A stretch of DNA of 64,000 nucleotides from an uncultured Verrucomicrobiales bacterium (GCA_964651705.1 CAZYWZ010000023.1:4412-68411), one strand, 5' to 3'; counted from the first letter of the stretch, positions 14,168 through 63,515 are shown. The notes: generated by a model from the sequence alone, not told the origin. A program made the numbers and translations.

Positions 14168-14182
14168 TCCACGTTACCACTA

Positions 14183-16311: not shown

Positions 16312-16405
16312 CGAATTCTCAGAGGCAATACGTTAATCCAGAGAGTGATCTATGATGACAAGAGCAGGCTGGATAAGATCGGGTAGGCTTTTTTGGAGAT
16401 TTCAC

Positions 16406-36975: not shown

Positions 36976-38426
36976 GCCGCCACCTCGCCATCGTATGCCT
37001 ATCCCTCCTGGCCTCCCACTGGACCTCGCCCGCGGCTCCCCCACCGAATATCGTCGTGGTCTTCATCGATGACATGGGATGGGGCGACTTCTCTTGCTTC
37101 GGGAACAGGGACGCCAGCACACCGAACGTCGACCGCCTCGCCTCCCAGGGCATTCGCTTCTCGCAGTTCTACGTGAACTCGCCGATCTGCTCCGCCTCGC
37201 GCTGCGCCCTGACGACCGGCCAGTACCCTCAGCGCTGGCGCATCACCTCCTTCCTGAACAACCGCGCCGACAACGAGCGCCGCGGCATGGCGCAGTGGCT
37301 GGATCCGGCCGCCCCGACGCTCGCCCGATTCCTGAAGGCGGCCGGCTACGCCACCGGCCATTTCGGCAAATGGCATCTCGGCGGCCAGCGCGATGTCGAT
37401 GACGCCCCGCCGATCACGGCCTACGGTTTCGACGCTTCCCTCACCAACTTCGAGGGCATGGGGCCAAAGCTCCTCCCTCTCACCCTTAAGCCCGGCGACA
37501 GAGAACCCGGCCGCATCTGGGCCGACGCCGAACGCCTCGGCAAACCCGTCGCCTGGATGCTCCGCTCGAAGGTCACCACAGGCTTCATCGACGCGGCGCT
37601 CGAATTCGTCGCCACCGCGCAGCGCGCCAAGAAGCCCTTCTACATCAATCTCTGGCCCGACGATGTCCATAGCCCATTCTGGCCGCCGGTGGACCGATGG
37701 GCGGACGACAAGCGAGGGTTGTATCTCGCCGTGCTCGAGGAGATGGATCGCCAGCTTGGCAAGCTCTTTGACCACATTCGCGACGACGCATCCCTGCGCG
37801 ACAACACCCTCATCCTCGTCTGCTCCGATAACGGCCCCGAACCCGGCGCCGGTAGCGCAGGAAGCCTCCGCGGCGCCAAGACCACCCTATTCGAGGGCGG
37901 CATCCGGTCCCCCCTCGTCGCCTGGGGCCCCGGGATCATAGCGCCCGAACGCGCCGGCGCGCACGATGCGACTTCCGTCTTTGCCGCGTTCGATCTCGTG
38001 CCTTCCCTGCTCACCATCGCGGGCGCAAAACGCCCCGCAGGCGTCGCCTTCGACGGCGAGGACATCTCCGCCACCCTGCTCGGCAAGGCCACCACCTCGC
38101 GACAGGCTCCCATCCACTGGCGCCGCCCCCCAGACCGAAAATCCTGGCGTCCGATGATTGCCGACACACTTCCCGACCTAGCCGTTCGCGACGGCTCATG
38201 GAAACTCCTCTGCGATTACGATGGCTCCCGCCCCCTGCTCTACGATCTCGATAAGGACCCCGAGGAATCCCTAAACTTGGCGGCGAGCCATCAGGACATC
38301 GTCGCCCGCCTCACCGCGGCCGCTTTAGCCTGGCACCAGTCGATGCCCGCGGACAATGGCCCCGCGCTCGGAGTGGGGCCCCCGCCACAACCCGGAAAGC
38401 AAAAGAAGAAAATGTCCAAGAAATGA
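36972..38426 (+). CDS. Sulfatase (Cys-type; motif variant C-S-A-S-R) with a Lys-rich C-terminal tail
   Basis: Signal peptide MSRHLAIVCLSLLASHWTSPA. NIVVVFIDDMGWGD. Motif SPICSASRCALTTG. Tail PQPGKQKKKMSKK. In frame with track ORF 36612..38426. Confidence 0.85.
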   Translation: MSRHLAIVCLSLLASHWTSPAAPPPNIVVVFIDDMGWGDFSCFGNRDASTPNVDRLASQGIRFSQFYVNSPICSASRCALTTGQYPQRWRITSFLNNRADNERRGMAQWLDPAAPTLARFLKAAGYATGHFGKWHLGGQRDVDDAPPITAYGFDASLTNFEGMGPKLLPLTLKPGDREPGRIWADAERLGKPVAWMLRSKVTTGFIDAALEFVATAQRAKKPFYINLWPDDVHSPFWPPVDRWADDKRGLYLAVLEEMDRQLGKLFDHIRDDASLRDNTLILVCSDNGPEPGAGSAGSLRGAKTTLFEGGIRSPLVAWGPGIIAPERAGAHDATSVFAAFDLVPSLLTIAGAKRPAGVAFDGEDISATLLGKATTSRQAPIHWRRPPDRKSWRPMIADTLPDLAVRDGSWKLLCDYDGSRPLLYDLDKDPEESLNLAASHQDIVARLTAAALAWHQSMPADNGPALGVGPPPQPGKQKKKMSKK

Positions 38427-49901: not shown

Positions 49902-50588
49902 CTACTGCCCTTCCCAAAGCCTGATGTGGTCGATCTGACACGTGCCGCCATCGATGGCCTTGAAGTCGATCTGCGCCTGCCCGGCCATGTCGATGTTCTC
50001 GCTCTCGAATAAGTGCTTCTTCCCATCGATCTTGAGCAGGATCCTTCCCTTCTTCAACTCGATCACCACGTCGTGCCACTCGTTGAGCGTGAACAGCGGC
50101 CCCTTCACTTCCAGGGTCTCGACGTCTCTTTTGATCGCAAGCGTCGTCGCCTTCTCGCCGAAGGTCAGCGTGTGGATGTGGTGCCCTAGGTCAAAGAGCG
50201 GAAAGCCGCGCTGGTAGGCCTTCGCATCATACCGCACCCGCATGGCGCAGACGAAGTTCTCGGGCACCTTCTTGAGCCAGATCACCGGCTTGAACCCGGC
50301 GTGGGCCCGGTCGCCGCTGGCCACCTTCTTCTCCTGAAATTCCTTCGATGACGGACCGCCGGTCAGGACCCCGTCCTTTATCTCCCAGGTGGTGTTCTGC
50401 CGGACCTCCCAAAACTCCGAGTTGAGCGTCCCATCGAAGGCGTCCTCGTACACGAGCTTCGTGCGAAAGAACAACTCCGACCTGTATGCGGGCAGTCCCT
50501 CCGCCCGAAGCGGCGCATTCCAACAGAGGCATGACATGGCAACCGGCACGGCAAGAAGACGGACATGGTTTTTCATGAGCGGGCTCAT
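49902..50588 (-). CDS. DUF1080 (3-keto-disaccharide hydrolase / LamG-like jelly-roll) domain protein, secreted
   Basis: Signal peptide. [12 protein letters not shown]...[11 protein letters not shown]...[10 protein letters not shown]...[19 protein letters not shown]...[20 protein letters not shown] matches the DUF1080 family pattern. Lower GC than its neighbours. Confidence 0.6.
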
Positions 50589-50603: not shown

Positions 50604-52991
50604 CTATCGGATCAGCCTGGCCTCGATGTTCGCGACCTGGCGATTGGCGAACTCATCCGTCAGGAGCCACAGCTGGTAGAGGCCATCGATCTGCTTCAGG
50701 TACCAGTCGACCGAGCTTTTCGTCAAATCGCGCTTGGCATCCTTCGGCCGGTCCTCGTCGCGGATATCCGGCCGCACGCGATCGGCCGGCGGCTGGTAGG
50801 CCGGGTTGAAGACCAGGGCCGGCAGGTCGTTGGCGGGCAACAGGTGGCGCCACAGGAAGGCCTGCATCCTATCTTCGGACGGGACAGCCTCGCGGACGAT
50901 CTCTTGCTCCCCGACCTTCGCGCTGCCGACGACCGCGAGGTTGACGGGCTTCTCCATCTCCGACAGGGTCGATTTCAGGGTCAGGCCGATCGCCTCCTGT
51001 TTTGCGGCCAGCGTGGCGCCGGGAGATTCGAGCCCGGCGGGCAGGTCCTTGAATCGGAGCTGGATCGGTCCATCGAAGCCGTCCTTTCGGATGGCGAAGA
51101 CCGTCGCGTTCGCCGACTTCGCCCCCGCGATCACGATTCGTGATGGGATGAGCCGCAGCTCGAAGTCCGGCCTCGGCTGACTGATCCGGAGCCGGTAGGC
51201 ATACTCCTTGCCCGCGTGCCTACGGGTATCTCCCAAATGGACATAATACTTCCCGTCGGCGGGCAGCTTGACCATGAGATAGGAATCGGCGTGGTCGGTG
51301 TTCTCTCCCGATGCCGCATCGTAATAATCGTCGTTCAGCGCGATGACCTTGCCATCGGGGCCGGTCACCTTGAGGAAGGAATCGAACGGCGATCCGAGGC
51401 GGCGCGCGGTCACCTCCGCGACGAGAGTCTCACCCGCCTTCCCCTCCACCCCGAAGACATCCCAATCCCCGGGCCGATCCGACCGACCGTTGATTATCAT
51501 GGGCAGGCTGACTCTCTGGGCCTTGGATGGCACGTCATTGGATTCCTTGTCCATGCATTCCGGCAGCGTGTCTAGGACGAACGGCACCTCGTTGGAAATG
51601 ACCTCCCCGTTGCTCGCCACGATCCGGTGGCGTCCGGGCTTTGCGTCGTTGGGTGGTGCCGCCAGCGTGGTCTTCTCCAAATTCCAGCCGCTCATCTCGA
51701 TCTTGACCGGCTCTCCCGCCCGCCCCCCCAGGGGGAAGATGCCGCTCAAGAAAGGTGCCTCGGAGACCGTGACCCGGTACACGAAGCTCTCCCGACCCCG
51801 GAACAGCGCCTCGTTGATAGTCAGCACATACTCGCCATCCGCGGGGACTTCGAAGAACAGGACGGGGTCCGGGTCGAAGCGGAAATCGTCGTTGTAGGCC
51901 AGCTCGTTACCCTTCGCATCGCGCAGCGTCAACACGGCCTGAAACCATCCGGGGACGCCGTCGGCAACGTAGGGGGACAACTGTCTGGCCTTGGCCACGA
52001 TGACCAGGCGCTGGCCCTTCATGGCAGTGAATCGATACCGGTTGACCTCTCCGGCGCCGATCTGGCCATTCATCGTGCACGGCACCGTGATCTGTACCTC
52101 CTCCTCCTCCGGCGGCCGCTTCCGCTGGGCCAGATGCTCCTTGCCCAGCACCTGCTTCTGGCAGGTCTTCATCGGTTTCCGCGCGACTTCAGGGTCCTGG
52201 CCGACGAAAAATGGCAGCGGGTTGGACACCCCTTTCTTGCTAATAACCCGGATCTCGCGCGCTCCGGGCCTCGCGTCGGGGGCCACCGTCACCTCGGCAA
52301 ACACGAGCTCGCAATGGGCCGGCACCGCAGGATTCCGCTCGTCCTCCGCAAAGATCCTCTCGATCCGATCGATCAGTTTCGCCTTGGCCGCCTCCTGCTC
52401 GGACTTCGGGGCCTCCTCCTTCGCCTCGCCCGCCTTTAGCTCCTTCGCGTTTTCCAGGGACGCGTTGCAGTCCCTGCAGACGGTGGTGCCCAACGGGTTG
52501 AGGCGTCCGCAGGCGGGGCACATCACCCCCTCGACCTTCGGCGGCTCGATGCGCTCGGGCAACTCGAGAAACGCCATCTTGGCGACCATGGTCTCGTTGA
52601 CCACCGTCTCCTTCTTCTTCAGCTCGTTGAGCTGCTGCCGCAGGAGATCCAGCTCCTGATTGTTCAGCACCCGATAATAATCGACGAGCCGGACCGAGAC
52701 TCCCTCGCCCGTCACGACCACTTCGCTGGGTTCGAGAAGCCCCTGCCCGCCCAGCCGGATCTGGAAAGTCGAACCCTGCTGCCCGCCCGCCGGATAGACG
52801 TAGCCGATGTACTGGTTCTGCGCCCGGCCCGCGGACGCCCCCGCCAGCAGCAGGCCCAGGACCACAGATCTAACGACAGGGCGCAAGGCGCGCGGGGCCG
52901 CGGGAACCCCCAAGGCTGACTCGAAAATACGGCGCAACTCCAACGCGTCGGCCACGGCCGGCCACCCCACAGGCAATCTACTCATGGGCAT
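50604..52991 (-). CDS. Secreted protein with two pre-peptidase C-terminal (PPC) domains and a C4 zinc-ribbon
   Basis: Zinc-ribbon CPACGRLNPLGTTVCRDC. PPC-like modules GQIGAGEVNRYRFTAMKGQRLVIVAKA...GNELAYNDDFRFDPDPVLFF and GRSDRPGDWDVFGVEGKAGETLVAEVTAR...GKVIALNDDYYD. Confidence 0.5.
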   Translation of the reverse strand: MPMSRLPVGWPAVADALELRRIFESALGVPAAPRALRPVVRSVVLGLLLAGASAGRAQNQYIGYVYPAGGQQGSTFQIRLGGQGLLEPSEVVVTGEGVSVRLVDYYRVLNNQELDLLRQQLNELKKKETVVNETMVAKMAFLELPERIEPPKVEGVMCPACGRLNPLGTTVCRDCNASLENAKELKAGEAKEEAPKSEQEAAKAKLIDRIERIFAEDERNPAVPAHCELVFAEVTVAPDARPGAREIRVISKKGVSNPLPFFVGQDPEVARKPMKTCQKQVLGKEHLAQRKRPPEEEEVQITVPCTMNGQIGAGEVNRYRFTAMKGQRLVIVAKARQLSPYVADGVPGWFQAVLTLRDAKGNELAYNDDFRFDPDPVLFFEVPADGEYVLTINEALFRGRESFVYRVTVSEAPFLSGIFPLGGRAGEPVKIEMSGWNLEKTTLAAPPNDAKPGRHRIVASNGEVISNEVPFVLDTLPECMDKESNDVPSKAQRVSLPMIINGRSDRPGDWDVFGVEGKAGETLVAEVTARRLGSPFDSFLKVTGPDGKVIALNDDYYDAASGENTDHADSYLMVKLPADGKYYVHLGDTRRHAGKEYAYRLRISQPRPDFELRLIPSRIVIAGAKSANATVFAIRKDGFDGPIQLRFKDLPAGLESPGATLAAKQEAIGLTLKSTLSEMEKPVNLAVVGSAKVGEQEIVREAVPSEDRMQAFLWRHLLPANDLPALVFNPAYQPPADRVRPDIRDEDRPKDAKRDLTKSSVDWYLKQIDGLYQLWLLTDEFANRQVANIEARLIR

Positions 52992-53006
52992 CTCCTTTTC
53001 CCGCGG

Positions 53007-54410
53007 TCACATGATCTCTCTCAGGAGCCCGGCCGACTTCATCCCCTCGTTCTGCGCGTCCAGGACACGGGCATCGAGCCCCAGGGGGTTCGGCAGCGTG
53101 GCGTTGGCGTCGATCCCGGCCAACTGATAGAAGCTGCCCAAGAGGTCCGCCGGATAGACGGGCCGGTCCTTGACCTCCTCTCCTTTGGCGTCCGAGGAAC
53201 CAACGACGCGACCACCCTTGAATCCGCCACCCGCGACGAGCACGGTGAAGACCTTCCCGTAGTGATGGCGGCCGCCGTTCCACGGCGGTTCCCAAGAGAC
53301 CTTCGGCGACCGGCCGAACTCCCCGGTGCACCAGACCAGCGTGCTCTCCAGCAGTCCCCTCTCCCTCAGGTCAGCGAGCAGCGTCGCCAGGCCCTGGTCG
53401 AGCCAGGGGCACTGCCGCTTCATCGTCGCAAAGTGGTTGGAGTGCGTGTCCCAGCCACCGGGGAAGCTGATGGTGACATACGGCACGCCCGCCTCGACCA
53501 TCCGCCGGGCCGCGAGGCACTCCTGCCCGAAGGTATTCCGCCCGTAGCGATCCCGGATCACCTTGGACTCGTTGTCGAGATTGAATACCTCCTTCCCCTT
53601 GCCCAGGATCAGGCCGTAGGCCTTCTGCCTCGCCGCCTCGGCCTCGGCAACCTCCGGCACCTCCGAGAGCCCGTAACCCATGGTGTTGATCTTGTCCACC
53701 AACTCGCGGCGGGCCCTCTGGCGGTTGTCATCGATCCCGCGATTGACGATCCCCTGCACCTCGAAGCGGTCCGCGTTGGGATCGCCCCCCGTCGCGAACG
53801 GCTTGTACGCCGGGCCCAGGAAACCCTCCTCAGAAAAGCGTCCGGCCGCCTGCGTCATCACGATGTACGGCGGGAGCAACCCTTTGTATTCCTCCCTCTT
53901 GAAGTAGGTGAATATGGCGCCCACGCTCGGGTAGGCGAGTTGCCCGCCGGGCTTGTGGCCCGTCTGCATCAGGTAGGCCGCCGTCTCGTGGCCATCGATG
54001 CCGTGGGTCATGCTGCGTATCAAGGAGTACTTGTCCGCCTGCTTCGCCAGGTTCGGAAACAGCGAGCTGATCTGGATCCCATCGACGTTTGTCGGGATGA
54101 ATTTGTCGAATTCCCCGAGGTAATCGTAGCCGGTGCCCGGCTTCGGGTCCCACGTGTCATTGTGCGACATCCCGCCCCACAGGAAGACCTGGATGACCGA
54201 CTTGATCTTGCCCTTGGGCAACGGCTTCGCCGCCGCGTCCGGCACCGCCTTCGGTTCGCCGCCCGCGGGCGCCGCCTTGGGATCCTCCGCCAACGCCCGG
54301 AAACCCAGCCCGCCAGCGGCGACCATTCCCGCCGCGCCCAAGACGCCCCTCCGCACGGCCTCGCGCCGCGAGATGTTCCCTCGACCCTCTGGACCTTGCC
54401 CTGCGCTCAT
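53007..54410 (-). CDS. DUF1501 family protein (sulfatase/alkaline-phosphatase-like fold) with a Tat signal
   Basis: Tat motif SRREAVRRGVLGAAGMVAAGG. Motifs GGMSHNDTWDPKPG, YVTISFPGGWDTHSNHF, LVWCTGEFGRSPK are typical of DUF1501. The track ORF starts at 54500; the Met at 54410 precedes the twin-arginine signal. Confidence 0.75.
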   Translation of the reverse strand: MSAGQGPEGRGNISRREAVRRGVLGAAGMVAAGGLGFRALAEDPKAAPAGGEPKAVPDAAAKPLPKGKIKSVIQVFLWGGMSHNDTWDPKPGTGYDYLGEFDKFIPTNVDGIQISSLFPNLAKQADKYSLIRSMTHGIDGHETAAYLMQTGHKPGGQLAYPSVGAIFTYFKREEYKGLLPPYIVMTQAAGRFSEEGFLGPAYKPFATGGDPNADRFEVQGIVNRGIDDNRQRARRELVDKINTMGYGLSEVPEVAEAEAARQKAYGLILGKGKEVFNLDNESKVIRDRYGRNTFGQECLAARRMVEAGVPYVTISFPGGWDTHSNHFATMKRQCPWLDQGLATLLADLRERGLLESTLVWCTGEFGRSPKVSWEPPWNGGRHHYGKVFTVLVAGGGFKGGRVVGSSDAKGEEVKDRPVYPADLLGSFYQLAGIDANATLPNPLGLDARVLDAQNEGMKSAGLLREIM

Positions 54411-54496
54411 AGCTTCCCTGCTCCTTTCTTGCCCGCCTGCCTCATCGTGCCAGAAACGAAACTTCCAAATATTATGCCCGACCGCCCGCCCCGCAA

Positions 54497-57400
54497 TCAA
54501 TGCCTCAACAAAAATTCCGGGTTGTTGACCAGCGCCCAGGCGAGGTCGATCCAGACATCATTCCCTTTCGCCGCGCCGGTCTTGGCGTGCTCTTCTGCCG
54601 CCCGCACGTCGGCCTCCGTCGGGAACCGCGAGAGGATGGCGAGATAGAGCCTCTCGGCAATCTCCTCCGGTTTGCCGCCCGCGGAGATCAGCGCCGCGAG
54701 TTTCGGGCCTCCCTGAAGCTTCTGCTGGATGGTGGCCGAATTCAGCATATGCAGCCACTGCGGCGAGGCGAGTTCGCTCACGCGCTCGCTCTCCATCCCC
54801 GTGGCGCGCGTGGAGCGCCCGAACAGCGTCAGGAACGAACTCGTGACGCTGCCGTCGGCCAGGGCCACCGCGGGCATGTCCTCCGGAATATACGTGAACG
54901 GCTCCGGGACGGCGCTGGTGTACAGGTCAGATGTGCCGGTGATCTCGTTCAGGGCATCGATGAGCACCTCGGCCTCGACCCGGCGCAGGCGGTAGTTCGC
55001 AAAGGCCGCCACCGCCTCCGTACCCTTGGTCCTCGGCATCGAAGAGAACTGGTATGCCGTCGAGGTGAAAATCAGGCGCTTCAGGTGCCTCAGGTCGTAG
55101 CCGCTCGAGACCAACTCTTTCTCCAGATAGGCCAGAAGCTCGGGGATGGCGGGCGGGTTGTCCTCCCGGATGTCATCGGGCTCATGGATGATGCCGCGAC
55201 CCATGGCCCAGGCCCAGGTCCGATTGGCGATCGCCTTCGCGAACCACGGGTTCTCGGCGCGTATGAGCCAATCCGCGAACACCTCGCGCGGGTCGCGGTC
55301 TGGTGGGATGGTCGTCTTGGCGCCATCCGGAAACGTCGCCGCGAGCGGGGCGTTCTCGCTGAGCGGCTGCGCCAGCGCCTGGGGGATCTTGTTGGCGACG
55401 CTCACCGCCTTGGCGACGGCATCGACGCCCGGGGCGATGCTGCCAGGCACCGCGGTCGATTTCAGCGGGTCCCAGAACACGATCTCCTCCTTCCACTCGC
55501 TGGTGGGCTTGTAGCCGACCTGCGAGAAGAAGGCCGCCATGGAGGCCCGACGCTCATCGGGCCAGGACAGGACCCGCGTCCCCATCAGCGCCAATCCCAC
55601 CGACGCGGCAATTCCCTCCGGGCTCCTGTCTTGGATCGCCCTGTAGAAGTTGACCGGCCCGACGCGGAAATTGCTGCCGCTGGAGGTGAGCAGTTCCCGG
55701 ACGAACTTGTCGTACCGCGCGTTCTTGGCGATGGCCTCCCAGACCCAGCGATAATAGGCCTGCGCCGCGTTGGGCCAGAGTTTCACGGGAAACTCGGCCT
55801 TGATCCGCAAGATATCGCTCCATTTCATCGCCCAGTAGTCGACGTGCGCGGTCTGGCCGAGCAGCCGGTCGATCAGGGCGACGCGCTTGTTCTTGTCCGC
55901 GTCGCGGATGAACGCCTTCGCCTCATCCGCCGCCGGCAACTTGCCCGTCAGGTCCAGATAGGCGCGGCGGATGAATGCCGCATCGGTGCAGAGCGCCGGC
56001 TCGATGCCCGATGCCTTCAGCTTCGCGAAGATGATCTCGTCGATGCGGTTTCCCGGCTTCGGCGGATCGGGGCCCTCGAGGAGACCCGCGACGCGACCCT
56101 CGGCGATCAGCCGGTACAGCGCGGCCTTGGTCTCCTGGACCCTGGCGCGCTTTTCGTCGGAAACGTCCTGGGCGGCCAGATACGCCGCGCGCGTTCTCTC
56201 CGCCTCCGCCTTAAGCGGAGCGGCGGCGGCCTCCGCTTCCCCCGCCGCCTTCTCGTCCGCCACGTGGGTCTCCTTGGCCGACGCGACCCGCTTCCTGATG
56301 TTCGCGAGCGTCTCGTCCGTAGATACCTTCCGCTTCTCGGCACGGTCCAGCGCCTGCGCCGCGTTGTTGGCTTGAATCGTCGCCTGCTCCAGGGCCTTCT
56401 GTTTCGGGTCGAGCGCCGCCTTCGCCTCGTTGGCCGCCTTGCGCTTGGCGGCCGCTTCGGCCGTGGCCTGCTGGCTCGCCGCATCGAGTTGCAGGAGTTC
56501 CTTGGCCACCGCCCGGGCGCCCTCGTTCGCGGCGGCGCAGGCGGCGACCTGCTTCTTGGCGTTCGCCAACGCGTCGTCGGCCGCCTTCTTCTGCGCATCC
56601 GCACCCGTCACGACTCCCGCGGCCGCCGCGACCTGTTTCTGCGCCTCCTGCTGTTTCTGCTGGGCCTGGGAAAGCGCCGCCTTGGCCCCATCGGCCACCT
56701 TGCGTTTGGCGGCGGCATCGTCGGCGGCCTGCTTTTTCTCCGCGTCTGACTTGGCGGCATCCGCCGCGACCTGTTTGGCCGTGGCATCTGCCGCCGCCGC
56801 CGCCTGTTCGGCCCCTTGAGCGGCTGCGGTCGCGGCACCCACCTGCTGGCTCGCGGCCGCCAGCGCCTCGTCGGCCTTCTTCTTTCCCGCCTGTGCCTCG
56901 GCCAACTTCTGCCCGGCGGCCGCGACCTGTGCCCCGGCCCCCTGCTCTCCCTGCTGCGCCTTGGCCAGCGCGGCCGCGGCATCCGCCGCCGCCTTGCGCT
57001 TGGCCGCGGCCTGGTCTGCCACCTGCCGCTTCTCCGCGGCCAGTCTCTCAGCGGCTTGGGCGGCCTGCTCCGCGGCCTCGGCGGCTGCCGCTGTGGCACC
57101 GGCCTGCTTCTTTACGCTGGCCATGGCGGAATCGAGCAACTTCTTCCGCGAGGCCGGACCCGCAAATTTCTCCGCGGCGGCGGCGGCCAATTTCTGCGGT
57201 TCCTGCACCGCGGCCTGGGCCTGCGCCAGGGCCAACTTGGCCGCAGCGGCCGCCTTGCGCTTGGCCTCGGCATCGGCCCCCGCCTGCCGCACTTGCTCCT
57301 CGGAGCGAGCGGCACGCTCGGCCATCACCTTGGCCCTGGACTCGGCCGCCTGGGCCGCCTGCTCGGCCAACTGTTGCGCGCCGATGGCCGCCGCCAACTG

Positions 57401-59491
57401 TTTCTTCGCGTTGGCCGAGGCCTCGTCGGCCGCCTTCTTCTGGGCCTGGGCGTCGGTCAGGGTCTTCGCCGTGACGTTGGCGTGGCCCTGCGCTTGCTGC
57501 TCGCCCTGCTGGGCGTGGGCCAGCGCCGCCTTTGCCTCGTCGGCGACTTTCCGTTTGGCCGCCGCATCCGTCGCCGCCTCCTGTTTCTGGGGATCCGTTC
57601 TCCCGAAAAGGGCGGCGATGCCACGCCCCTTGCCCTCGGCCGCCTGCGCCTCCTTCTCGGCGGCATCGGCGGCGCCCGTGGCTGCGGCCAGCTGGTTCTT
57701 TGCGCTGGCCAGGGCTTCATCCGCCGCCTTCTTCTCGGCCTGGGCCGAGCCCAACTTCGTGGCCGCCGCATCCGCCGTCGCCTGCGCCCCTTGTTGTTTC
57801 TGCTGGGCCTGCGCCAGCGCGGCACCGGCATCATTGGCCACCTTGCGCTTCGCCGCCGCCTCCCGCACGGACTGGGCCAACTCCGCGGCCGATATCACCT
57901 TTGCGTTGGCCGCCGCCGCCTGGGCCACTTGCTCGGCCGCCTGATAGGCGGCCTGCGCCTCTTGCGGCTTCTGCGGCGCCTGCGCCAGCGCCGCCTTCGC
58001 ATCGTCCGCCGCCTTCCTCTTGGCCGCCGCATCCGCCGCGGCCTGCTTCATCTGCTCCTCGGTCCTCCCCGCGCGCTCGACCATCGCCTTTGCCGACGCC
58101 TCCGCCGCCTGCGCCTCCTGCTCCGCGCCCCCCTGAGTGCCCGCCGCCGCCGCCGCCAGATTCTTCGCATTGGCCAGGGCCTCGTCGGCCGCCTTCTTTT
58201 CGGCTTCCGCCCCCGCCCCCTTCTTGGCGGCCGCCTCGGCCGCCGCCTGCGCCCCCTGCTGTTTCTGCTGCGCCTGCGCCAGCGCCGCCTTCGCATCGTC
58301 TGCCGCCTTGCGCTTCGCCGCCGCCTCGCCAGCGACCTGGGCCAGTTCGGCGACCGGCACGACCCGCGCATTCGCCGCAGCCGCCTGCGCCGCCTGCTCG
58401 GCAACCTGATAGGCCGCCGTGGCCGCGGCGAGCTGTTTCTTGGCGTTGGCCAAGGCCTCATCCGCCGCCTTCTTCTGCCCTTCCGCCGCCACCAACTTCT
58501 GCGCGGCATCGGTGGCCTGCGCCTGCGCCCGCTGGTCGGCCTGCTGTGCCTGGGTCAAGGCGGCCTTGGCCTCTTCCGCCGCCTTGCGCTTCGTCGCCGC
58601 TTCCCCCGCCGCCTGCTGCTTCTCGGCCTCCGACACCGGCTTCGCATTCTCCGCTGCCGCCCCCGCGGCCTGCTCGGCTGCCTGATGCGCGGCCGCGGCC
58701 GCGGCCAGCTGCTTGTTGGCGTTCGCCAGCACTTCGTCGGCCGCCTTTTTCTCCTTCTCTACAACGGCAAGCTCTTGCCCCGCCTCGTTGACCTGCGCCT
58801 GTAACTTCTCCTCCCCCTGCCGCGCCCGCGCCAGCGCGACTTTCGCCCCATCCGCCGCCCGGCGCTTCACCGCCGCTTCCGCCGCCGCGCGCTTGGCTTC
58901 CTCCTCGGGCCGATTCGCCGCGTCGGATGCCGCCTTCGCCGCCGCCTCGGCTTCCTTCGCCGCCTTCTCCGCCGCATCATAGGCCTGCTGCAGCGGGAGC
59001 GCCACCGCCTTGGCATCGGCCAACGCCTTGTCCAGCGGCGGCTTCGCGCTCGTCGCGTCGGCCAAACCCTTCACGGCCACGGCCACATTGTCCTCCGCTT
59101 CCTTGATGGCCTTGACGCCCCCTTCCCCGGCCAGTTCCTTCGCCTCCGTCGCCTGCTGCCGCTTCGTGTCGGCGCCCTTCCTAGCCTCGGCGTACGCCCC
59201 GTCGGCCTTCTGCATCGCCGCCCTCAGCGGACCCACCGCCGCATCCGCCTCCCCAGACGCCTTCGCCGCTCCCTCGTATGCCGCCCTCGCCTCCGCCTCC
59301 GTCACCGCCGCCTTCGCCGCATCCGCCCCCACAGCCACCCCACAATGGAAATTCCCCGACGCGACCGCCAAGGCCACAACAAGGACTACCCAGCCCCCCT
59401 TGCCCCGGGGGAACAACACCTCGCCATCAACGCCGCAATTCATGGATCGATCCCTCGAAGGCTCTCGGCCCAATCCGGCCGACAAAATCAA
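54497..59491 (-). CDS. DUF1549/DUF1553 (PSD1-type) protein with an N-terminal membrane anchor and an about 1000-aa Ala/Lys/Glu/Gln-rich coiled-coil repeat array
   Basis: C-terminal third has DUF1549 (IDEIIFAKLKASGIEPALCTDAAFIRRAYLDLTGKLPAADEAKAFIRD...KRVALIDRLL) then DUF1553 (ENPWFAKAIANRTWAWAMGRGIIHEPDDIRED). The N-terminal 60-1000 aa consist of about 12 repeats of about 57-100 aa anchored on AAKRK[AV]A[DN][DE]AKAAL[AS]QAQQ. The periodicity also shows up as about 280-nt-spaced look-alike antisense ORFs. Confidence 0.8.
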   Translation of the reverse strand: MILSAGLGREPSRDRSMNCGVDGEVLFPRGKGGWVVLVVALAVASGNFHCGVAVGADAAKAAVTEAEARAAYEGAAKASGEADAAVGPLRAAMQKADGAYAEARKGADTKRQQATEAKELAGEGGVKAIKEAEDNVAVAVKGLADATSAKPPLDKALADAKAVALPLQQAYDAAEKAAKEAEAAAKAASDAANRPEEEAKRAAAEAAVKRRAADGAKVALARARQGEEKLQAQVNEAGQELAVVEKEKKAADEVLANANKQLAAAAAAHQAAEQAAGAAAENAKPVSEAEKQQAAGEAATKRKAAEEAKAALTQAQQADQRAQAQATDAAQKLVAAEGQKKAADEALANAKKQLAAATAAYQVAEQAAQAAAANARVVPVAELAQVAGEAAAKRKAADDAKAALAQAQQKQQGAQAAAEAAAKKGAGAEAEKKAADEALANAKNLAAAAAGTQGGAEQEAQAAEASAKAMVERAGRTEEQMKQAAADAAAKRKAADDAKAALAQAPQKPQEAQAAYQAAEQVAQAAAANAKVISAAELAQSVREAAAKRKVANDAGAALAQAQQKQQGAQATADAAATKLGSAQAEKKAADEALASAKNQLAAATGAADAAEKEAQAAEGKGRGIAALFGRTDPQKQEAATDAAAKRKVADEAKAALAHAQQGEQQAQGHANVTAKTLTDAQAQKKAADEASANAKKQLAAAIGAQQLAEQAAQAAESRAKVMAERAARSEEQVRQAGADAEAKRKAAAAAKLALAQAQAAVQEPQKLAAAAAEKFAGPASRKKLLDSAMASVKKQAGATAAAAEAAEQAAQAAERLAAEKRQVADQAAAKRKAAADAAAALAKAQQGEQGAGAQVAAAGQKLAEAQAGKKKADEALAAASQQVGAATAAAQGAEQAAAAADATAKQVAADAAKSDAEKKQAADDAAAKRKVADGAKAALSQAQQKQQEAQKQVAAAAGVVTGADAQKKAADDALANAKKQVAACAAANEGARAVAKELLQLDAASQQATAEAAAKRKAANEAKAALDPKQKALEQATIQANNAAQALDRAEKRKVSTDETLANIRKRVASAKETHVADEKAAGEAEAAAAPLKAEAERTRAAYLAAQDVSDEKRARVQETKAALYRLIAEGRVAGLLEGPDPPKPGNRIDEIIFAKLKASGIEPALCTDAAFIRRAYLDLTGKLPAADEAKAFIRDADKNKRVALIDRLLGQTAHVDYWAMKWSDILRIKAEFPVKLWPNAAQAYYRWVWEAIAKNARYDKFVRELLTSSGSNFRVGPVNFYRAIQDRSPEGIAASVGLALMGTRVLSWPDERRASMAAFFSQVGYKPTSEWKEEIVFWDPLKSTAVPGSIAPGVDAVAKAVSVANKIPQALAQPLSENAPLAATFPDGAKTTIPPDRDPREVFADWLIRAENPWFAKAIANRTWAWAMGRGIIHEPDDIREDNPPAIPELLAYLEKELVSSGYDLRHLKRLIFTSTAYQFSSMPRTKGTEAVAAFANYRLRRVEAEVLIDALNEITGTSDLYTSAVPEPFTYIPEDMPAVALADGSVTSSFLTLFGRSTRATGMESERVSELASPQWLHMLNSATIQQKLQGGPKLAALISAGGKPEEIAERLYLAILSRFPTEADVRAAEEHAKTGAAKGNDVWIDLAWALVNNPEFLLRH

Positions 59492-59589
59492 ATTTTCGAA
59501 CCAATTCTAATTATGCCACGTGTCACGGTCAAGCCGTTCTGATGCTCGAGAACGCACGTCAGTCGACCGGACCGATGGCGTCGGCGCCC

Positions 59590-62500
59590 TTACCAGATCA
59601 CCTGCACGCGCATGAAGCGCCGCGGATGGGCGGGATCGGTCACCGGATAGGCATCCGTCACCTCCACGGTTCGCAGTTCGCCAGACCCGGATTCGGTGAC
59701 GGTGACGCCATCGATCAAGGGCACCGTCGTGGCCCCATTTGCGCTCGCGGCGAGGTCTGTCCACGGCCCGGTCAACGCATCGCTGCCTTGGACGACCAGG
59801 GAGACATCCGTGTGGGCGACGACCCGGGCAAACCGCAGCGCGAGCCTGCCGCCGGGCGTGCTGGCCTGGGGGAGGTTCGCCACTGAAGGGTCGTTCGGGT
59901 CGCCACCCAGGGCATACTCCACGATGTTCGCCATGCCGTCCCACTCGACGTCGACGAGGTTGCCCGATAGGGCCGGGTTGTCCCAATCCTCTCCGAAATT
60001 GGCCTGCCTCCAGTCGGCGATCGGCGCGTCGGCGACCACCGTCAGGAGGAAGCTGTCGCTGGCGGTTCGCGTCCCGTCGCTCACGGTGAGGGTGATGGTC
60101 GCCGCGCCGCTCTGGTTTGGGGCGGGCGTGACCCTGACGGTCCGATCGTTGCCCGATCCCGAAAACACGATATTCGCGGCCGGCACCAATGTCGTGTCCG
60201 ACGACGATTTTGTCAGCACCAGCGCGTCGGTGGCGGTCTCGGCATCGCCGACGGCCACGGCCAGTTCCGGGGTCGCGGTGTCCTCCGCGATCGCCTGATC
60301 GGCCAGGTCACCAATCGTTGGGGCCTCGTTGCACACGTTGACGATGTCGGCGATCTCGGGCGCCGTGAGGGCGTGGTCGTAGAGCCGCACCTCGTCCATG
60401 TGGGAACGAAACCGGAACTGCGTGGCCATCGCCCCGACATGAAATGTTGCCTCATTGGCGAAATCCGTGCGGATGGTCCCGGCCGCCACCGCAATGCCGT
60501 TCCGGTAGAGCGTCACCGCGCCACCGGCGCGATCCACCGCCGCCACGACATGTTGCCACCGATCAAAGGCGACGGTGCCCGCAGAGGAACTGACGTTGGC
60601 GCCCACGGTCCCATTGCCCGTGGCGAAGACGAGTTTCCCGTCGCCCGTATTGAATCCGTTCACATAGAACCGGAAACCGTCGGTGGACGCGCCGCCGGCG
60701 GAGTTTGCTGCGATGGTCTGGATCTGTGCCGTCCCGCTGGGGACAAAGATCCACGCGGCGACGGTGAACCTGTCGCCAAGCGGGATGGGGCTGGCGCTCG
60801 ATGCACCGTCGGTCGTGCCATCGAACGTGAGCGACTGGCCACCCTGCTTTCTTGTCGCGCTCGAGAACGCCGGGACACCGCTATGCGCCAGCGCCCAACC
60901 GCCCCCCGTCACATCATCGAGCGTGCCGTCGAATGGCCAGCGGGCGATCGCCCCGGCGACGCCATCCGCGGACAGGACCGTCACGCGGAAGCTGTCGCTG
61001 GCGCGGAGGCCCCGCGAGTCCGTCACCGTCACCGTGATGTTGGCGGACCCAGACGCGTTCGCCTTCGGCGTGACGGTCACGGTGCGGTTCGTGCCGCCTC
61101 CCCCGAACACGATGGCGTCGGCCGGCACGAGGGCGGGATTCGACGACGCGCCGGAGACGACCAGGGAGTCGGGCGGCGTCATGTCGTCGCCGACGGTAAA
61201 AACCAACACGGGGGTGGACTCGCCCTCGGCGATCGTCTGGTTCACGACGTTCCCGATGGTCGGCGGATTATCCCACACATGCGTGGTGCTCGCCGGGGCA
61301 GAAGCTTCCATGGCCTGATTGACGGCCTCCACTTCGATAGACACGGACGGCTCATCCCCGGCGCGATCCAGCTCGGGGATGAAGCAGGCATCCCGGCTCG
61401 CGGCCCATAGCCAAGTGCGGCCGCCGCCGGCGTTGCGCCGGTACACGTTATAGTATCGCACGTCGGATGATGCCGACGGTGTCCAGCGCAGGCGCACTGA
61501 GTCCCGCATAGCGCTCACGGCGTAGGAGTTCTCCACGTAGACACCGGTGGGCGCGTCCGGCGGCGAGGGCGACCCCTCGTAGATTGCCAGTTCGCCGAGC
61601 TGCATCGAGTAATCGCCGATGGCGCCGGCCGCGGCCGGATCGAACTGCAAACCGATGTACCCCAGCCTTCGCCCTGAGTGTGACGCCAGGCTGAATGCCT
61701 TCGTCGCCCAACCTGTGCCCGCGCGGGTGCCGACATCGAGGTAGACCGTGGTGCCCGGTGCGTCGGCGAATGCGAGCGCGACCCTCATGTTTGTCTCCTC
61801 GAAAGCGTCGGTGTCCCTGTACGCGATGCGCAACGTGGTCCCGGAGGTGATGGGCAGGTTGGCCTGGTAGAGGCGCAACTCACTGGCGGCATCCAGATTC
61901 CCGGCGATTCGGAGGCAGCTGCCCCCGGTGTAGGCGTCCTTCCAATACCACGAGGGCATCAGGCGATTGGTGCTCGCCGTGTCCAACGCCCACTGCCAAG
62001 AGGGCAGGATATCCTGCGTGGTCAGATTGTGCCAGTTGAACACCACCCCATCGGCATCGAGCGCCGACCGCACGAGCGCCCCACGCCAATAGAAACGGTT
62101 TCCGTGGCCGACGTTGAACCCGCTCACGAACGGCAGCTGCTGGAGCGGGCTCCATTCTTGCACGTAATGCGCCAGGCCCTCCCAATCCGTGCCACTGGCG
62201 GTGTCCGGCGTATTCGAAGGATCCTCGTTTGGGCCGGCCCAGAACTTGCGCTCCCGCTGGTAAAATAGCACGCTGTCGTTCCCCGACTTATCGAAGGTCC
62301 AATTCGGCTGATACAGCCCGACCGAGGCGCGGTGGGCGGCGCCATTCGGAAACAGGTAGTTCCAATTCACCGACGTGTCATAGCCATCGGACTGAACGTC
62401 GGCGCCAAAGTACAATTCGTACGGGCTTCGCCCCAATCCCGTGGCCGCGCTGACGCCATTCGTGACTTTCGCCATCGACCACCCGAAGTCGGCGAAGAAA

Positions 62501-63291
62501 GTGTCGCTGACCAGCGTGCCGCCATCCTGGAAAAACGCATCGTTGTTGGCATTGAGCGTGTCCTGCCACGAGACCGTCCCCGCCTCCGTCATCGCGTCGT
62601 ACCACATGATCCGGAGGCCCGAGTTCGATTGGATGTATTTCAGGAAATTTCGGACCTCCGTGGCGAGCGCCGCGTCGCCGCCACCGGTCTCCTGATTCAC
62701 GAACCACCCGTCGAAACCGCAGTAGTTTGCGATGGCTATCAATTTGTCCGCCACCGGGTAGCTGGAACCCGTCTTCTGGACCAATGCCTGCACCCATTCG
62801 ATTTTCCCGCCGTACGCCGTTGGTGGAAAAAAGATATTGCCGAACACCGGGACACCGCTGCGATGCCCCGCATCGATCAGCGTGGGGTTGGGCGCGAGGA
62901 TGATCCCCGCGCCGGCAGAGCCCCCCCACAGGACTAGCTGGTCGAGGTACTGCCAGTGCGCGAACGCGTAATAATCGAGGAAGCTCGCCGTGCGCTCGCC
63001 CTGGGAGGGGTTCTTGTTCGCCGCGTGAAAGGATGAGAGCGCCGTGATGCCGCCCTCCCCCGAACGCGCGTTGGCATTTATCTTGAAGTCCGGGTTTCGC
63101 CCCCTGGGCGCCAGCGGCGTGCCCGACCGCATGTAGGGGGCGTCGGGGTCGTTCGAGATGTCGTAGTTCAGGATGAAGTTCGGTTCGGTATCCTTGAGAT
63201 GCCAGAGTCCGGCGTATGGCTGCCCGGGTGGTGCCGCGCCCAAGGCCGCGCACATAAACCACAACGGCGCGACGATTCCGCCGCGCCCCAT
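59590..63291 (-). CDS. Large secreted multidomain glycosidase: GH85-like endo-beta-N-acetylglucosaminidase domain + two Ig/cadherin-like modules flanking a LamG/ConA-like domain
   Basis: Signal peptide MGRGGIVAPLWFMCAALGAAP. FLDYYAFAHWQYLDQLV...CGFDGWFVNQETGG matches the GH85 catalytic region (GWLINiE motif with N-x-E). Two about 95-aa duplicated modules (PPTIGNVVNQTIAEGESTP...RTVTVTPKANASGSANITVTVTD and EAPTIGDLADQAIAEDTATP...RTVRVTPAPNQSGAATITLTVSD) flank a LamG-like segment (RFTVAAWIF...DEVRLYDHALTAPEI). The track ORF extends to 63483; start set at the Met before the signal peptide. Confidence 0.55.
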   Translation of the reverse strand: MGRGGIVAPLWFMCAALGAAPPGQPYAGLWHLKDTEPNFILNYDISNDPDAPYMRSGTPLAPRGRNPDFKINANARSGEGGITALSSFHAANKNPSQGERTASFLDYYAFAHWQYLDQLVLWGGSAGAGIILAPNPTLIDAGHRSGVPVFGNIFFPPTAYGGKIEWVQALVQKTGSSYPVADKLIAIANYCGFDGWFVNQETGGGDAALATEVRNFLKYIQSNSGLRIMWYDAMTEAGTVSWQDTLNANNDAFFQDGGTLVSDTFFADFGWSMAKVTNGVSAATGLGRSPYELYFGADVQSDGYDTSVNWNYLFPNGAAHRASVGLYQPNWTFDKSGNDSVLFYQRERKFWAGPNEDPSNTPDTASGTDWEGLAHYVQEWSPLQQLPFVSGFNVGHGNRFYWRGALVRSALDADGVVFNWHNLTTQDILPSWQWALDTASTNRLMPSWYWKDAYTGGSCLRIAGNLDAASELRLYQANLPITSGTTLRIAYRDTDAFEETNMRVALAFADAPGTTVYLDVGTRAGTGWATKAFSLASHSGRRLGYIGLQFDPAAAGAIGDYSMQLGELAIYEGSPSPPDAPTGVYVENSYAVSAMRDSVRLRWTPSASSDVRYYNVYRRNAGGGRTWLWAASRDACFIPELDRAGDEPSVSIEVEAVNQAMEASAPASTTHVWDNPPTIGNVVNQTIAEGESTPVLVFTVGDDMTPPDSLVVSGASSNPALVPADAIVFGGGGTNRTVTVTPKANASGSANITVTVTDSRGLRASDSFRVTVLSADGVAGAIARWPFDGTLDDVTGGGWALAHSGVPAFSSATRKQGGQSLTFDGTTDGASSASPIPLGDRFTVAAWIFVPSGTAQIQTIAANSAGGASTDGFRFYVNGFNTGDGKLVFATGNGTVGANVSSSAGTVAFDRWQHVVAAVDRAGGAVTLYRNGIAVAAGTIRTDFANEATFHVGAMATQFRFRSHMDEVRLYDHALTAPEIADIVNVCNEAPTIGDLADQAIAEDTATPELAVAVGDAETATDALVLTKSSSDTTLVPAANIVFSGSGNDRTVRVTPAPNQSGAATITLTVSDGTRTASDSFLLTVVADAPIADWRQANFGEDWDNPALSGNLVDVEWDGMANIVEYALGGDPNDPSVANLPQASTPGGRLALRFARVVAHTDVSLVVQGSDALTGPWTDLAASANGATTVPLIDGVTVTESGSGELRTVEVTDAYPVTDPAHPRRFMRVQVIW

Positions 63292-63515
63292 CGTTCCACG
63301 CGGGGCTCTCGCGCCACCGGCGTGGCGCGCGCCCCGACAAGGCGATAGGTCCAAAACTGCAGCGTCGACCACGCCTGCACCAATATCGGAACCGGCAACA
63401 GAAGTCGAGGTCGCGCCGACCCGATCCGCAGGCACTGTCTCAAATCGGGCCAGCCCCACCCCCGCCGCGCGGACGCGCCGCATCGTTCATGTGGAAACTC
63501 CATTCCCGCTGCCGC

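Follow-up and report, generated by a model that had tools for sequence, protein, structure and literature searches.

A three-gene cassette of the PVC superphylum encoding a PSCyt2/PSD1 protein with a long predicted coiled-coil rod

Introduction

Gene modules in which a DUF1501 protein, a PPC-domain protein and a PSCyt/PSD1 protein are encoded side by side have been described previously, and a related module was found to correlate with invaginated membranes among PVC species (Kamneva et al., 2012; PMC3542564). Coiled coils are unmentioned in that work, which contains zero occurrences of 'coiled'. Sulfatases have been reported near PSCyt genes (He et al., 2017).

Here we describe a window of 64,000 nucleotides from an uncultured Verrucomicrobiales bacterium (GCA_964651705.1, CAZYWZ010000023.1:4412-68411), in which positions 50604-59532, on the minus strand, hold a copy of a self-contained cassette of three genes that occurs across the PVC superphylum (Planctomycetes, Verrucomicrobia and relatives). 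The cassette shares with the clusters of Kamneva et al. the adjacency of the three families, the twin-arginine (Tat) signal on DUF1501 and the signal peptides on its partners, and this adjacency is present in the window and at all 80 related loci with enough flanking sequence. It differs in that protein A has neither the PSCyt1/Big_2 region nor a CxxCH motif and no WD40 gene belongs to the cassette; instead, protein A carries an N-terminal coiled coil of ~1,070 amino acids.

Results

Gene content and domains

The preliminary description treated the stalked protein and DUF1501 as a two-gene module, with the PPC gene as a mere neighbour. Both open reading frames are present as claimed (1664 and 497 aa), but the unit is one of three genes, stalk-head protein (A), DUF1501 (B) and PPC protein (C), and the order A-B-C is kept at all of the 80 loci. 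Clustering of flanking reading frames recovered the three cassette genes in 80, 76 and 69 loci, with the next genuine cluster in no more than 6 and no fourth conserved neighbour. Sister clusters L085 and L087 have both a PSCyt1/Big_2 region on protein A and a fourth, PSCyt1/WD40, gene; the window and the orthologous loci have neither. Features are collected in Table 1.

Table 1. Features of the cassette, in positions of the window (amino acids of protein A numbered on the 1664-aa reading frame)
Feature	Position	Strand	Basis and remarks
Promoter-like site, TTGACC-17-TAGAAT	59504..59532	-	10/12 consensus matches only; lies between GH85 stop codon and stalk gene
Gene A, stalked PSCyt2/PSD1 protein	54497..59491	-	ORF from TTG 59491; probable start ATG 59443, giving 1648 aa; orthologue N-termini
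Sec-type signal peptide (putative), aa 17-56, MNCGVDGEVLFPRGKGGWVVLVVALAVASGNFHCGVAVG before ADA	59324..59443	-	Sequence; signal-peptide-like orthologue N-termini; cleavage inferred
N-terminal 'tip' of mature protein, aa 57-200, including divergent unit 1	58892..59323	-	Conserved; contains prolines; 61-72% identical across 11-unit class
Ten heptad coiled-coil units u2-u11, aa 201-1094	56210..58891	-	92, 92, 98, 57, 98, 98, 87, 98, 87, 87 aa
Junction helix and linker joining rod to head, aa 1095-1148	56048..56209	-	AF2 helix 240-308 (model numbering); conservation 0.57
PSCyt2/DUF1549 domain, aa 1149-1285	55637..56047	-	Pfam; profile positions 1-144 of 209 only; CxxCH absent
PSD1/DUF1553 domain, aa 1402-1634	54590..55288	-	Pfam
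Gene B, DUF1501 protein with twin-arginine signal, 467 aa	53007..54410	-	78-92% identical in orthologous cassettes
Gene C, exported PPC-domain protein, 795 aa	50604..52991	-	Third cassette member; 64-83% identical in orthologues

Protein A consists, from N- to C-terminus, of a putative signal peptide, ~1,070 residues of alanine-rich repeats, PSCyt2/DUF1549 and PSD1/DUF1553. Although a reading frame of 1664 aa exists, translation likely starts at Met17, whose ATG has an SD-like GAGGGA and with which the orthologue N-termini agree. The promoter-like match upstream suggests that the cassette has its own promoter.

The three domain calls were confirmed, all lying above the Pfam gathering scores: PSCyt2/DUF1549 (PF07583; E 1.8e-26, 93.8 bits against a cutoff of 29.8), PSD1/DUF1553 (PF07587; E 1.1e-34, 120.5 bits against 28.5, profile positions 2-242 of 244) and, on the 497-aa frame, DUF1501 (PF07394; E 1.3e-95, 321 bits against 27). 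The PSCyt2/PSD1 head is a fold without a solved relative. Compared with the sister protein P0149, where the haem-binding motif reads CARCH, the segment holding CxxCH is deleted from the window head, and the motif is found neither in the window's protein A nor in any of 61 head homologues; for this reason the designation 'planctomycete cytochrome' was rejected for the PSCyt2 of protein A. A stalk-less paralogous cassette (P0109/L081; PSCyt2-PSD1 protein of 557 aa, DUF1501, PPC) has the same gene order and a head 60-70% identical to that of the window, and sometimes lies in tandem with, or inverted beside, a stalked cassette. It differs in that its signal peptide leads directly into the head, with no rod between.

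Gene B likely starts at Met31 (54410), which is also the start that was called independently on a Logan contig. The predicted Tat export of its product is supported by a twin-arginine motif, SRREAVRRG, followed by a hydrophobic stretch and conserved in orthologues and paralogues. The proposed sulfatase-like fold stands in part: hhalign relates DUF1501 to a profile of the window's sulfatases (E 6e-5, probability 64%), but only over aa 331-438 (~100 aa), with the nucleophile region outside the alignment.

The rod

Alanine makes up 32-48% of each 100 aa across residues ~100-1100 of protein A. Eleven units, each 57-98 aa long, make up the stalk; its KRK motifs lie 92, 98, 57, 98, 98, 87, 98 and 87 aa apart, and the DNA shows a 276-nt period (Tandem Repeats Finder). 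The repeats had been called near-identical at the DNA level, yet units within the window stalk are only 54-74% identical in DNA and 36-72% in protein. Heptad periodicity is stronger than in every shuffle: its power at period 3.50 is 11-13, and no shuffle went above 9.9. In a consensus built from 370 internal units, Leu or Val occupies positions 20, 41, 55 and 62 in 81-97%, and Ala accounts for 74-95% at positions congruent to 2 modulo 7, except at position 9, which is Lys, and position 58, where Ala falls to 71% and large hydrophobic residues make up 24%. The combined fraction of Gly and Pro is at most 0.19 at any of the listed unit positions, and no conserved helix breaker was found inside the rod units. 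The heptad register is constant through the 98-aa units (14 heptads) and shifts by +1 after the 92-aa and by +3 after the 87-aa units. These sequence data show the rod to be a canonical heptad coiled coil whose a positions hold Leu, Val or Ala and whose d positions hold Ala.

An AF2 monomer model contains helices of 87, 137 and 69 residues, with units folded back on one another; its confidence is modest (pLDDT 66-70, with 60-70 in the stalk), and a monomer model cannot tell an intramolecular hairpin from a parallel homo-oligomer. Fully extended, the rod would measure ~160 nm, or ~80 nm as one antiparallel hairpin. The long alpha-helical stalk of 100 nm or more that was originally proposed is supported by the 3.50 periodicity, the unit consensus and register, and the AF2 helices.

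The N-terminus

The same proposal placed a membrane anchor at the N-terminus, which the sequence does not favour. A hydrophobic segment of about 13-23 residues is followed by AVG/A in the window protein and by AHA/G or AQA/A in orthologues, and an AxA-type site follows the N-terminal hydrophobic segment here and in nearly all of them; the N-terminus therefore looks like a cleavable Sec signal peptide rather than a stable membrane anchor. No stable transmembrane segment, peptidoglycan-binding domain or outer-membrane beta-signal was found in protein A. Inspection of the orthologue N-termini by eye found no lipobox ([LVI][ASTVI][GAS]C), and an Lpp-like lipoprotein was rejected since the cysteine near the signal peptide is preceded by Ile, Val, Thr or His in the N-termini listed. 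Elsewhere the tip was found only in N-terminal fragments of the protein A orthogroup and inside the PSD1 insertion of P0149.

Rod length and the spread of the unit

The stalk is not peculiar to this copy but the norm in its orthogroup, where stalks span 427-1,406 aa (~3-14 units). Lineages differ in unit number and in the pattern of unit lengths, but within a lineage both are fixed. The window copy falls into an 11-unit class (proteins of 1652-1705 aa; stalk 54-76% identical position by position) whose pattern recurs in ~9 independent Verrucomicrobia and Lentisphaerae assemblies and is seen at loci L001, L004, L006, L021, L033, L036, L045 and L046; another pattern, [99,92,98,98,87,98,87], is found in more than 10 Planctomycetes genomes, two cultured strains among them. 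Cultured carriers include Novipirellula herctigrandis CA13 and strain ZRK34. Units are positionally orthologous between genomes (identity is 55-78% for units in matching positions and 25-60% for the other pairs), and a deletion of 36-40 aa that shortened unit 5 is common to the window and L001, its closest relative. The DNA identity of 54-74% between units that are old and positionally orthologous argues that the stalk is neither hypervariable, as had been supposed, nor an assembly artefact. A hypervariable contingency repeat was rejected on that identity and on the retention of the 11-unit pattern in eight loci. Metagenomes also contain short-stalk variants of 14-119 aa; should these prove real, the limits on rod length would be looser than we argue.

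A profile of the unit gave only 22 matches among 1.84 billion cluster representatives. In P0149 it is inserted in a loop of PSD1, on 4 contigs with the gene order A, DUF1501, WD40, PPC, so that a four-gene sister cluster of the Kamneva type carries the window's coiled-coil unit. It also occurs between WD40 blades and in PPC proteins of sister DUF1501 clusters, its hosts there being the non-enzymatic subunits PSD1, WD40 and PPC. Units inserted within folded domains must form hairpins there.

Genomic context

A GH85 gene and at least 12 sulfatase genes flank the cassette in the window. On the strand of the cassette, 15 nt separate the end of gene C from the start of a DUF1080-like gene, and sulfatase genes also lie downstream on that strand; local co-transcription with glycan genes may occur in this genome. 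A role in glycan capture was suggested from these neighbours, none of which is conserved beside the cassette. Near the 80 related loci no homologue of the window's GH85 or DUF1080-like copies was found and sulfatase matches were weak and confined to ~6; L001 has no GH85, DUF1080-like or sulfatase match beside its cassette, and the contexts of the orthologues sampled are unrelated to one another. Across these loci the domain pair is not tied to glycan-utilisation genes. Assignment to a polysaccharide-utilisation or sulfatase cluster was rejected, as there is no conserved co-localisation with CAZymes and sulfatases are sporadic and weak across orthologues.

Discussion

With modest confidence, we lean towards reading the locus as a conserved exported three-protein cassette with a structural rod and an envelope-related function. 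Protein A would be exported by Sec and, once its signal peptide is removed, consist of a conserved tip of ~150 aa, a rod of ~900-1,000 residues and the PSCyt2/PSD1 head; protein B would be exported by Tat as a relative of the alkaline-phosphatase/sulfatase superfamily, and protein C by Sec. The three may assemble into a single complex of the periplasm or envelope, with the head as dedicated partner of a DUF1501 hydrolase or transferase. The rod would be structural rather than catalytic or variable; it could keep the enzyme head a set distance away from a ligand of the tip, or bundle subunits, and the job of the cassette would be a conserved envelope-related one rather than the use of a particular glycan. 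It counts against a spacer that protein A, if its signal peptide is cleaved, is without an identified anchor.

Coiled coils with alanine in the core include the Lpp-56 alanine zipper, the antiparallel 'Alacoil' and TolA domain II, which share with the window rod an alanine at one core position over many heptads, an abundance of Ala, Lys, Glu and Gln, and a periplasmic setting, predicted in the case of the rod. Unlike Lpp and TolA, the rod has no apparent lipid or transmembrane anchor; it lacks TolA domain III and a Lys context for covalent linkage to peptidoglycan, is 10-20 times longer than Lpp, and shows no detectable homology. Resemblance to the coiled-coil hairpins of EnvC, PcsB and RipA, regulators of periplasmic or extracellular hydrolases, and of Tsr, SMC and the dynein stalk is generic, the identity of 7-25% reflecting composition, and the window has no FtsEX-type partner or hydrolase domain of the EnvC, PcsB and RipA families. 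Streptococcal M protein and phage tape-measure proteins are likewise long, repeat-built alpha-helical rods, but here there is no LPXTG or cell-wall anchor, hypervariable region or phage context, and the repeats are ancient and positionally conserved.

Among the alternatives, a parallel homo-dimeric or homo-trimeric fibre of ~160 nm is possible but on balance unlikely. Such a fibre, comparable to M protein, the Lpp alanine zipper or tetrabrachion, would form a surface or periplasm-spanning fibril with the heads at one end, acting as a tether or ruler that sets the spacing of envelope layers. The continuous heptad register and Ala/Leu core fit it well, whole- and partial-unit indels are easily tolerated in a parallel oligomer, discrete lineage-specific lengths suit a ruler, and the correlation with invaginated membranes (Kamneva et al., 2012) is in keeping with it. 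The single-unit indels, and the unit 5 deletion shared by the window and L001, fit poorly with a single long hairpin. However, homologous units elsewhere are necessarily hairpins, the AF2 monomer folds units back on each other, and none of the anchoring elements looked for in protein A was found. A rod of 120-200 nm also exceeds the width of an ordinary periplasm.

We consider it very improbable that a membrane-anchored stalk of rapidly varying repeat number projects the head far outward, where it would work with the GH85, DUF1080 and sulfatase products in capturing or processing a large sulfated glycoconjugate. The neighbours in this genome and the sulfatases reported by He et al., 2017 speak for it, but the model is largely refuted by the failure of that context to recur, by an N-terminus that looks cleavable, and by repeats that are divergent and positionally orthologous. 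It is hardly credible that the alanine-rich region arose by erroneous expansion in assembly, or is a low-complexity linker that is mostly disordered and has no specific structure: the composition is extreme, short-read assemblies often break here and leave many homologues truncated at contig ends, and the stalk pLDDT is low, but independent assemblies agree on the 11-unit pattern, L001 has the same shortened unit 5, stalks align position by position, heptad a and d positions are conserved with very little Gly or Pro, and the units differ too much in DNA to have been collapsed or expanded in error.

Our preferred view of the rod is that it serves an exported DUF1501 enzyme complex as a structural spacer or as an assembly rod. 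A bolder version, which we put forward as speculation and think rather doubtful, is that the cassette encodes a core envelope machine of the PVC bacteria, in which an alanine-zipper rod of quantised, lineage-specific length (~30-200 nm) serves as ruler or scaffold, positioning a DUF1501 phospho- or sulfo-transferase or hydrolase complex in the unusually wide, invaginated periplasm of these bacteria or at crateriform or fibre structures, while the coiled-coil unit acts as an assembly glue that moves between the PSD1, WD40 and PPC proteins of the sister systems. If true, this would represent a new class of bacterial envelope-organising complex.

Results

Genes A, B and C run in the same direction in the window and encode the stalked PSCyt2/PSD1 protein, a DUF1501 protein and a PPC-domain protein, respectively (table). 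A promoter-like sequence for gene A, TTGACC-17-TAGAAT, ends at nucleotide 59504. An ORF of 1664 aa, the length given in the preliminary description, is indeed present, but the likely start is the ATG at 59443, which has GAGGGA upstream and fits the N-termini of the orthologues, giving a protein of 1648 aa. For the DUF1501 protein the most likely start is Met31 (nucleotide 54410), immediately 5′ of the twin-arginine motif SRREAVRRG; the same residue is chosen in an independently called gene for an identical DUF1501 protein on a Logan contig. This predicted Tat signal is conserved, and proteins A and C carry predicted Sec-type signal peptides with AxA-like sites. Sequence reading and Pfam/NCBIfam scans of A and C revealed no lipobox, second hydrophobic segment or recognised sorting domain; with no lipobox, a lipoprotein anchor was rejected.

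Features of the window and of related loci (E, Pfam E value)
Feature	Location	Strand	Size	Description
Gene A ORF	54497-59491	-	1664 aa	Stalked PSCyt2/PSD1 protein
PSCyt2/DUF1549	residues 1149-1285 of 1664-aa ORF			E 1.8e-26
PSD1/DUF1553	residues 1402-1634 of 1664-aa ORF			E 1.1e-34
Gene B ORF	53007-54500	-	497 aa	DUF1501, E 1.3e-95
Gene C ORF	50604-52991	-	795 aa	PPC domain, E 3.6e-11
GH85 gene	59590-63483	-	1297 aa	Upstream of gene A; endo-beta-N-acetylglucosaminidase
DUF1080-like ORF	49902-50588	-		Weak 3-keto-disaccharide hydrolase match; starts 15 nt past gene C
Sulfatase array	16352-50026	both		At least 12 sulfatase genes
Sulfatase-GHL15 fusion	16352-18991			Array member
HEAT-repeat sulfatase	38423-40303			Array member
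GH120-like gene	14476-16311			Beta-helix
ORF	44144-46867	-	907 aa	Sole Pfam match a borderline C-terminal PEP-CTERM sorting motif
P0149	L085:414-3776			PSCyt2/PSD1 protein with CxxCH motifs, mini-stalk inserted
P0139	L087:8001-9860			Exported WD40 protein, two units between blades, Pro-Pro at midpoint
P0144	L088:8001-11156			Gene C homologue (37% identical), units in C-terminal part
Sister-cluster ORF	L087:9874-12966			Coiled-coil unit inserted
Stalk-less cassette	L065:15932-21284
Stalk-less cassette	L066:16122-21299
Stalk-less cassette	L021 and L045			Inverted
Stalk-less cassette	L081:8001-13307

When the head (aa 1101-1664) was scanned against one genome per GTDB species, 269 relatives were found, of which the best 80 (73-85% identity) were kept. 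The groups named in the record titles of these 80 are Planctomycetota (Thermoguttaceae, Pirellulales), Verrucomicrobiia, Lentisphaerae/Victivallales and Kiritimatiellae, and two of the carriers are in culture, namely Novipirellula herctigrandis CA13 and, with a complete genome, strain ZRK34. The closest of the 80 is L001, a locus from a Verrucomicrobiia MAG (head 85%, DUF1501 92% and PPC protein 83% identical). The order A, DUF1501, PPC holds at every one of the 80 loci with enough flank, and identity across the orthologous cassettes is 78-92% for DUF1501 and 64-83% for the PPC protein. Between genomes labelled as different phyla, DUF1501 identity is about 80-92%. All-versus-all clustering of ORFs of at least 150 aa from the 80 loci left three clusters that are both real and conserved, covering 80, 76 and 69 loci; beyond these, no genuine flanking cluster occurs at more than six, and the remainder are shadow ORFs over A, B and C. 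The pair of DUF1501 and PSD1 genes previously described does recur, but the unit is one of three genes, the PPC gene being conserved with them.

A stalk-less paralogous cassette, with the head directly after the signal peptide, adjoins the stalked one in some genomes, in tandem or inverted, and lies elsewhere in others. Its head is 60-70% identical to the stalked version; for the copies in the table the values are about 57-64% (head), 68-72% (DUF1501) and 51-57% (PPC). A small ORF 5′ of one stalk-less paralogue (L081:7455-7994) was considered as a separate stalk gene and set aside, as its translation looks spurious.

From about residue 100 to 1100 gene A encodes 32-48% Ala per 100 aa, with aromatic residues and Pro very scarce. 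A unit HMM resolves 11 units; the KRK and KKAADE motifs are spaced by 92, 98, 57, 98, 98, 87, 98 and 87 aa. The hydrophobicity of the stalk has a period of 3.50 residues, with a power of 11-13, where shuffled sequences reach 9.9 at most. Across all loci, 370 internal units were aligned to the unit HMM. In their consensus the heptad series 6, 13, 20 ... 83 has Leu or Val in 81-97% of units at positions 20, 41, 55 and 62, Glu at 27, Lys at 48 and mostly Ala at the rest. Three residues on (2, 16, 23 ... 79) Ala is found in 71-95%, position 9 being Lys. Gly plus Pro does not exceed 0.19 at any unit position listed, and variation is confined to a unit junction of 3-15 residues, often GRTEE-like. 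In the window stalk the phase is intact across 98-aa units (14 heptads) and shifts by +1 after 92-aa and +3 after 87-aa units. An AF2 model of aa 823-1664 (71 homologues, pLDDT 66) contains helices of 87, 137 and 69 residues. The period above shuffles, the conserved heptad core, the continuous register and the modelled helices support the alpha-helical coiled coil proposed earlier; its contour length would be about 160 nm.

Far from being a peculiarity of this protein, an Ala-rich extension (30-42% Ala) upstream of the head is the norm in the orthogroup, present at essentially every locus that is not cut by a contig end. Past the signal peptide it spans 427-1,406 aa (median 801 aa) in orthologous loci. 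Patterns of unit length repeat exactly between genomes: eight units (spacings 99, 92, 98, 98, 87, 98 and 87 aa) in more than ten Planctomycetes genomes, six (99, 98, 87, 98 and 87 aa) in several genomes, and eleven (99, 92, 92, 98, 97, 98, 98, 87, 98 and 87 aa) in Verrucomicrobia and Lentisphaerae. Both the window and L001 fall in this last, 11-unit class, whose full-length proteins have 1652-1705 aa, and in both unit 5 is cut to 57-61 aa.

The claim that the DNA repeats are near-identical proved wrong. Units of gene A are 54-74% identical to one another as DNA and 36-72% as protein, Tandem Repeats Finder detects a period of 276 nt (74% matches), and no direct-repeat family in the stalk DNA exceeds 82% identity to its reference copy. 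Each window unit best matches the same-numbered unit of three related loci (L001, L006 and L046), at 55-78% against 25-60% for other units, and across the 11-unit class position-by-position identity is 54-76% in the stalk, compared with 77-83% in the head. The recurring patterns, this positional orthology and the class-wide identity indicate that the repeats are old, individually conserved and stable, and on these grounds we reject a hypervariable or contingency repeat; lineages do vary in copy number, which ranges from about 3 to 14 units. An assembly artefact is likewise rejected, since the unit pattern recurs and same-numbered units match best across genomes.

Many database homologues end inside the stalk, which shows it to be a common breaking point of short-read assemblies. 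Three metagenomic proteins (P0037, P0008 and P0041) have the signal peptide and head of the orthogroup with a stalk of only 14-119 aa, similar EAEAA sequences marking the point where the start of the tip meets the end of the last unit. They may have arisen by natural recombinational deletion or as shortcuts taken by the assembler. On one JGI contig (L084:5145-9431) the stalked gene is split between two called ORFs, of 544 aa without a Pfam match and then 802 aa with PSCyt2/PSD1, which may reflect a frameshift or stop in the stalk or a sequencing error. In the window, 56000-59500 has an extreme AT skew (-0.48) and carries very long spurious shadow ORFs on the plus strand and in other frames; one of them, 56816-58804, is rich in Arg, Leu and Gly and encodes 662 aa. 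Both features are produced by the stalk's repeated Ala, Lys, Gln and Glu codons, and the region could mislead gene callers.

A search of 1.84 billion cluster representatives with a profile built from eight window units retrieved no more than 22 proteins. Alongside orthogroup members and fragments, these include three further architectures (P0149, P0139 and P0144). The mini-stalk of P0149 comprises tip, units and last unit, is 42% identical to window aa 49-239 and sits in the loop immediately ahead of the last PSD1 helix. P0149 is present on four contigs in the order A, DUF1501, WD40, PPC, and P0139 belongs to a cluster of the same type. In the sister clusters units lie in a loop towards the C-terminus of PSD1, between the blades of WD40, or into or after the PPC protein; Ala-rich unit segments occur in all three non-enzymatic subunits at L087 and in two at L088.

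The window head and 61 of 61 head homologues lack the CxxCH motif, the segment being deleted relative to P0149. This subfamily is therefore unlikely to serve in electron transfer, and a cytochrome function of protein A was rejected. The DUF1501 protein aligned with a profile of the window's sulfatases over aa 331-438 only (hhalign E 6e-5). NCBIfam gave no match for the four proteins scanned, PDB searches with single sequences and profiles nothing below E 0.05, and permissive Pfam scans, run on head, tip and PPC protein, yielded nothing more than weak zinc-ribbon and PUMA_CC matches. With the tip (aa 40-300) as query, a homologue search recovered just 16 short fragments, Ala-rich words saturating the word index. 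Residues 154-180 of the exported PPC protein (52452-52532, minus strand) contain a zinc-ribbon-like CPACGRLNPLGTTVCRDC motif with weak DUF7577, DZR and L40e-like matches, inside an insertion of about 130 aa not present in the paralogue P0144.

A glycan role had been proposed from the neighbouring genes. The GH85 and DUF1080-like genes have no counterpart at any of the 80 related loci, and sulfatases are matched, weakly, at about six. Neighbours of the orthologues sampled include HtrA/MgtE/ABC transporter genes, IS66 and DruA, and GH2/aldose epimerase genes. A context that is not conserved is what the preliminary description itself took to speak against such a role, and from these 80 loci we reject the cassette as part of a polysaccharide-utilisation locus. 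In this genome the GH85 gene is apparently a separate transcription unit, and the cassette may be co-transcribed with the DUF1080-like gene and sulfatases, one of which also lies downstream of it, an arrangement that is not conserved. The GH85 protein has GH85_C, two cadherin-like/Big_9 and Laminin_G_3 domains. Elsewhere in the window, the GH120-like gene coincides with a stretch (14001-16311) of GC 0.547, against about 0.65 elsewhere, and may be horizontally acquired.

Discussion

We have shown a conserved three-gene cassette whose products are predicted to be exported, and whose PSD1 subunit, judged from its sequence, bears a conserved rod with a heptad Ala core and a modular length fixed by lineage. 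The observation first made in the window thus stands, and its interpretation is borne out in part. The stalked cassette is a variant of a known, uncharacterised PVC module: Kamneva et al. (2012; PMC3542564) described a module of DUF1501, a PPC-domain protein, a PSCyt/PSD1 protein and sometimes a WD40 protein, the presence of which correlates with invaginated membranes among PVC species, and neither they nor He et al. (2017) assigned it a function. Among the papers retrieved none describes a coiled coil in these modules, a word that Kamneva et al. do not use, and our literature searches found no published description of the stalked variant and no functional study or mention of the stalk.

How the helices of the rod pack can be read in two ways. 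The units may fold back as an antiparallel hairpin: Ala at every seventh residue of the core also suits the antiparallel ‘Alacoil’ type, and insertions within folded domains of sister-cluster proteins must return to their starting point, so that units can form hairpins. A parallel oligomer, or a unit-wise arrangement, is better suited than one long hairpin by the single-unit indels and by the 36-40-aa deletion in unit 5. One single hairpin would need the phase shifts of the two stalk halves to mirror each other; compared by eye, two of five match if the apex is set near aa 621, a result indistinguishable from chance.

We infer that A, B and C would work as one periplasmic or envelope complex, with the rod as a structural spacer or assembly element. 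Given the lack of an evident membrane anchor, the likeliest contact site would be the N-terminal tip, which is conserved at 61-72% identity. The presence of units in several subunits of one operon suggests that they bundle together, and this recurrence in the sister clusters provides a testable hypothesis on how such complexes assemble.

For annotation, CAZyme and sulfatase neighbours are no guide to the function of the cassette, and shortened ‘DUF1553’ metagenome proteins often reflect an assembly break inside the stalk. DUF1501 and PSCyt/PSD1 are among the most expanded unexplained families in Planctomycetes and Verrucomicrobia, a problem named since 2004-2012. The stalked orthogroup offers a good experimental handle on it, being a compact cassette at all loci examined, with strong conservation and cultured carriers, and with a rod of 60-200 nm that is open to length engineering and could be visible in cryo-electron tomograms.
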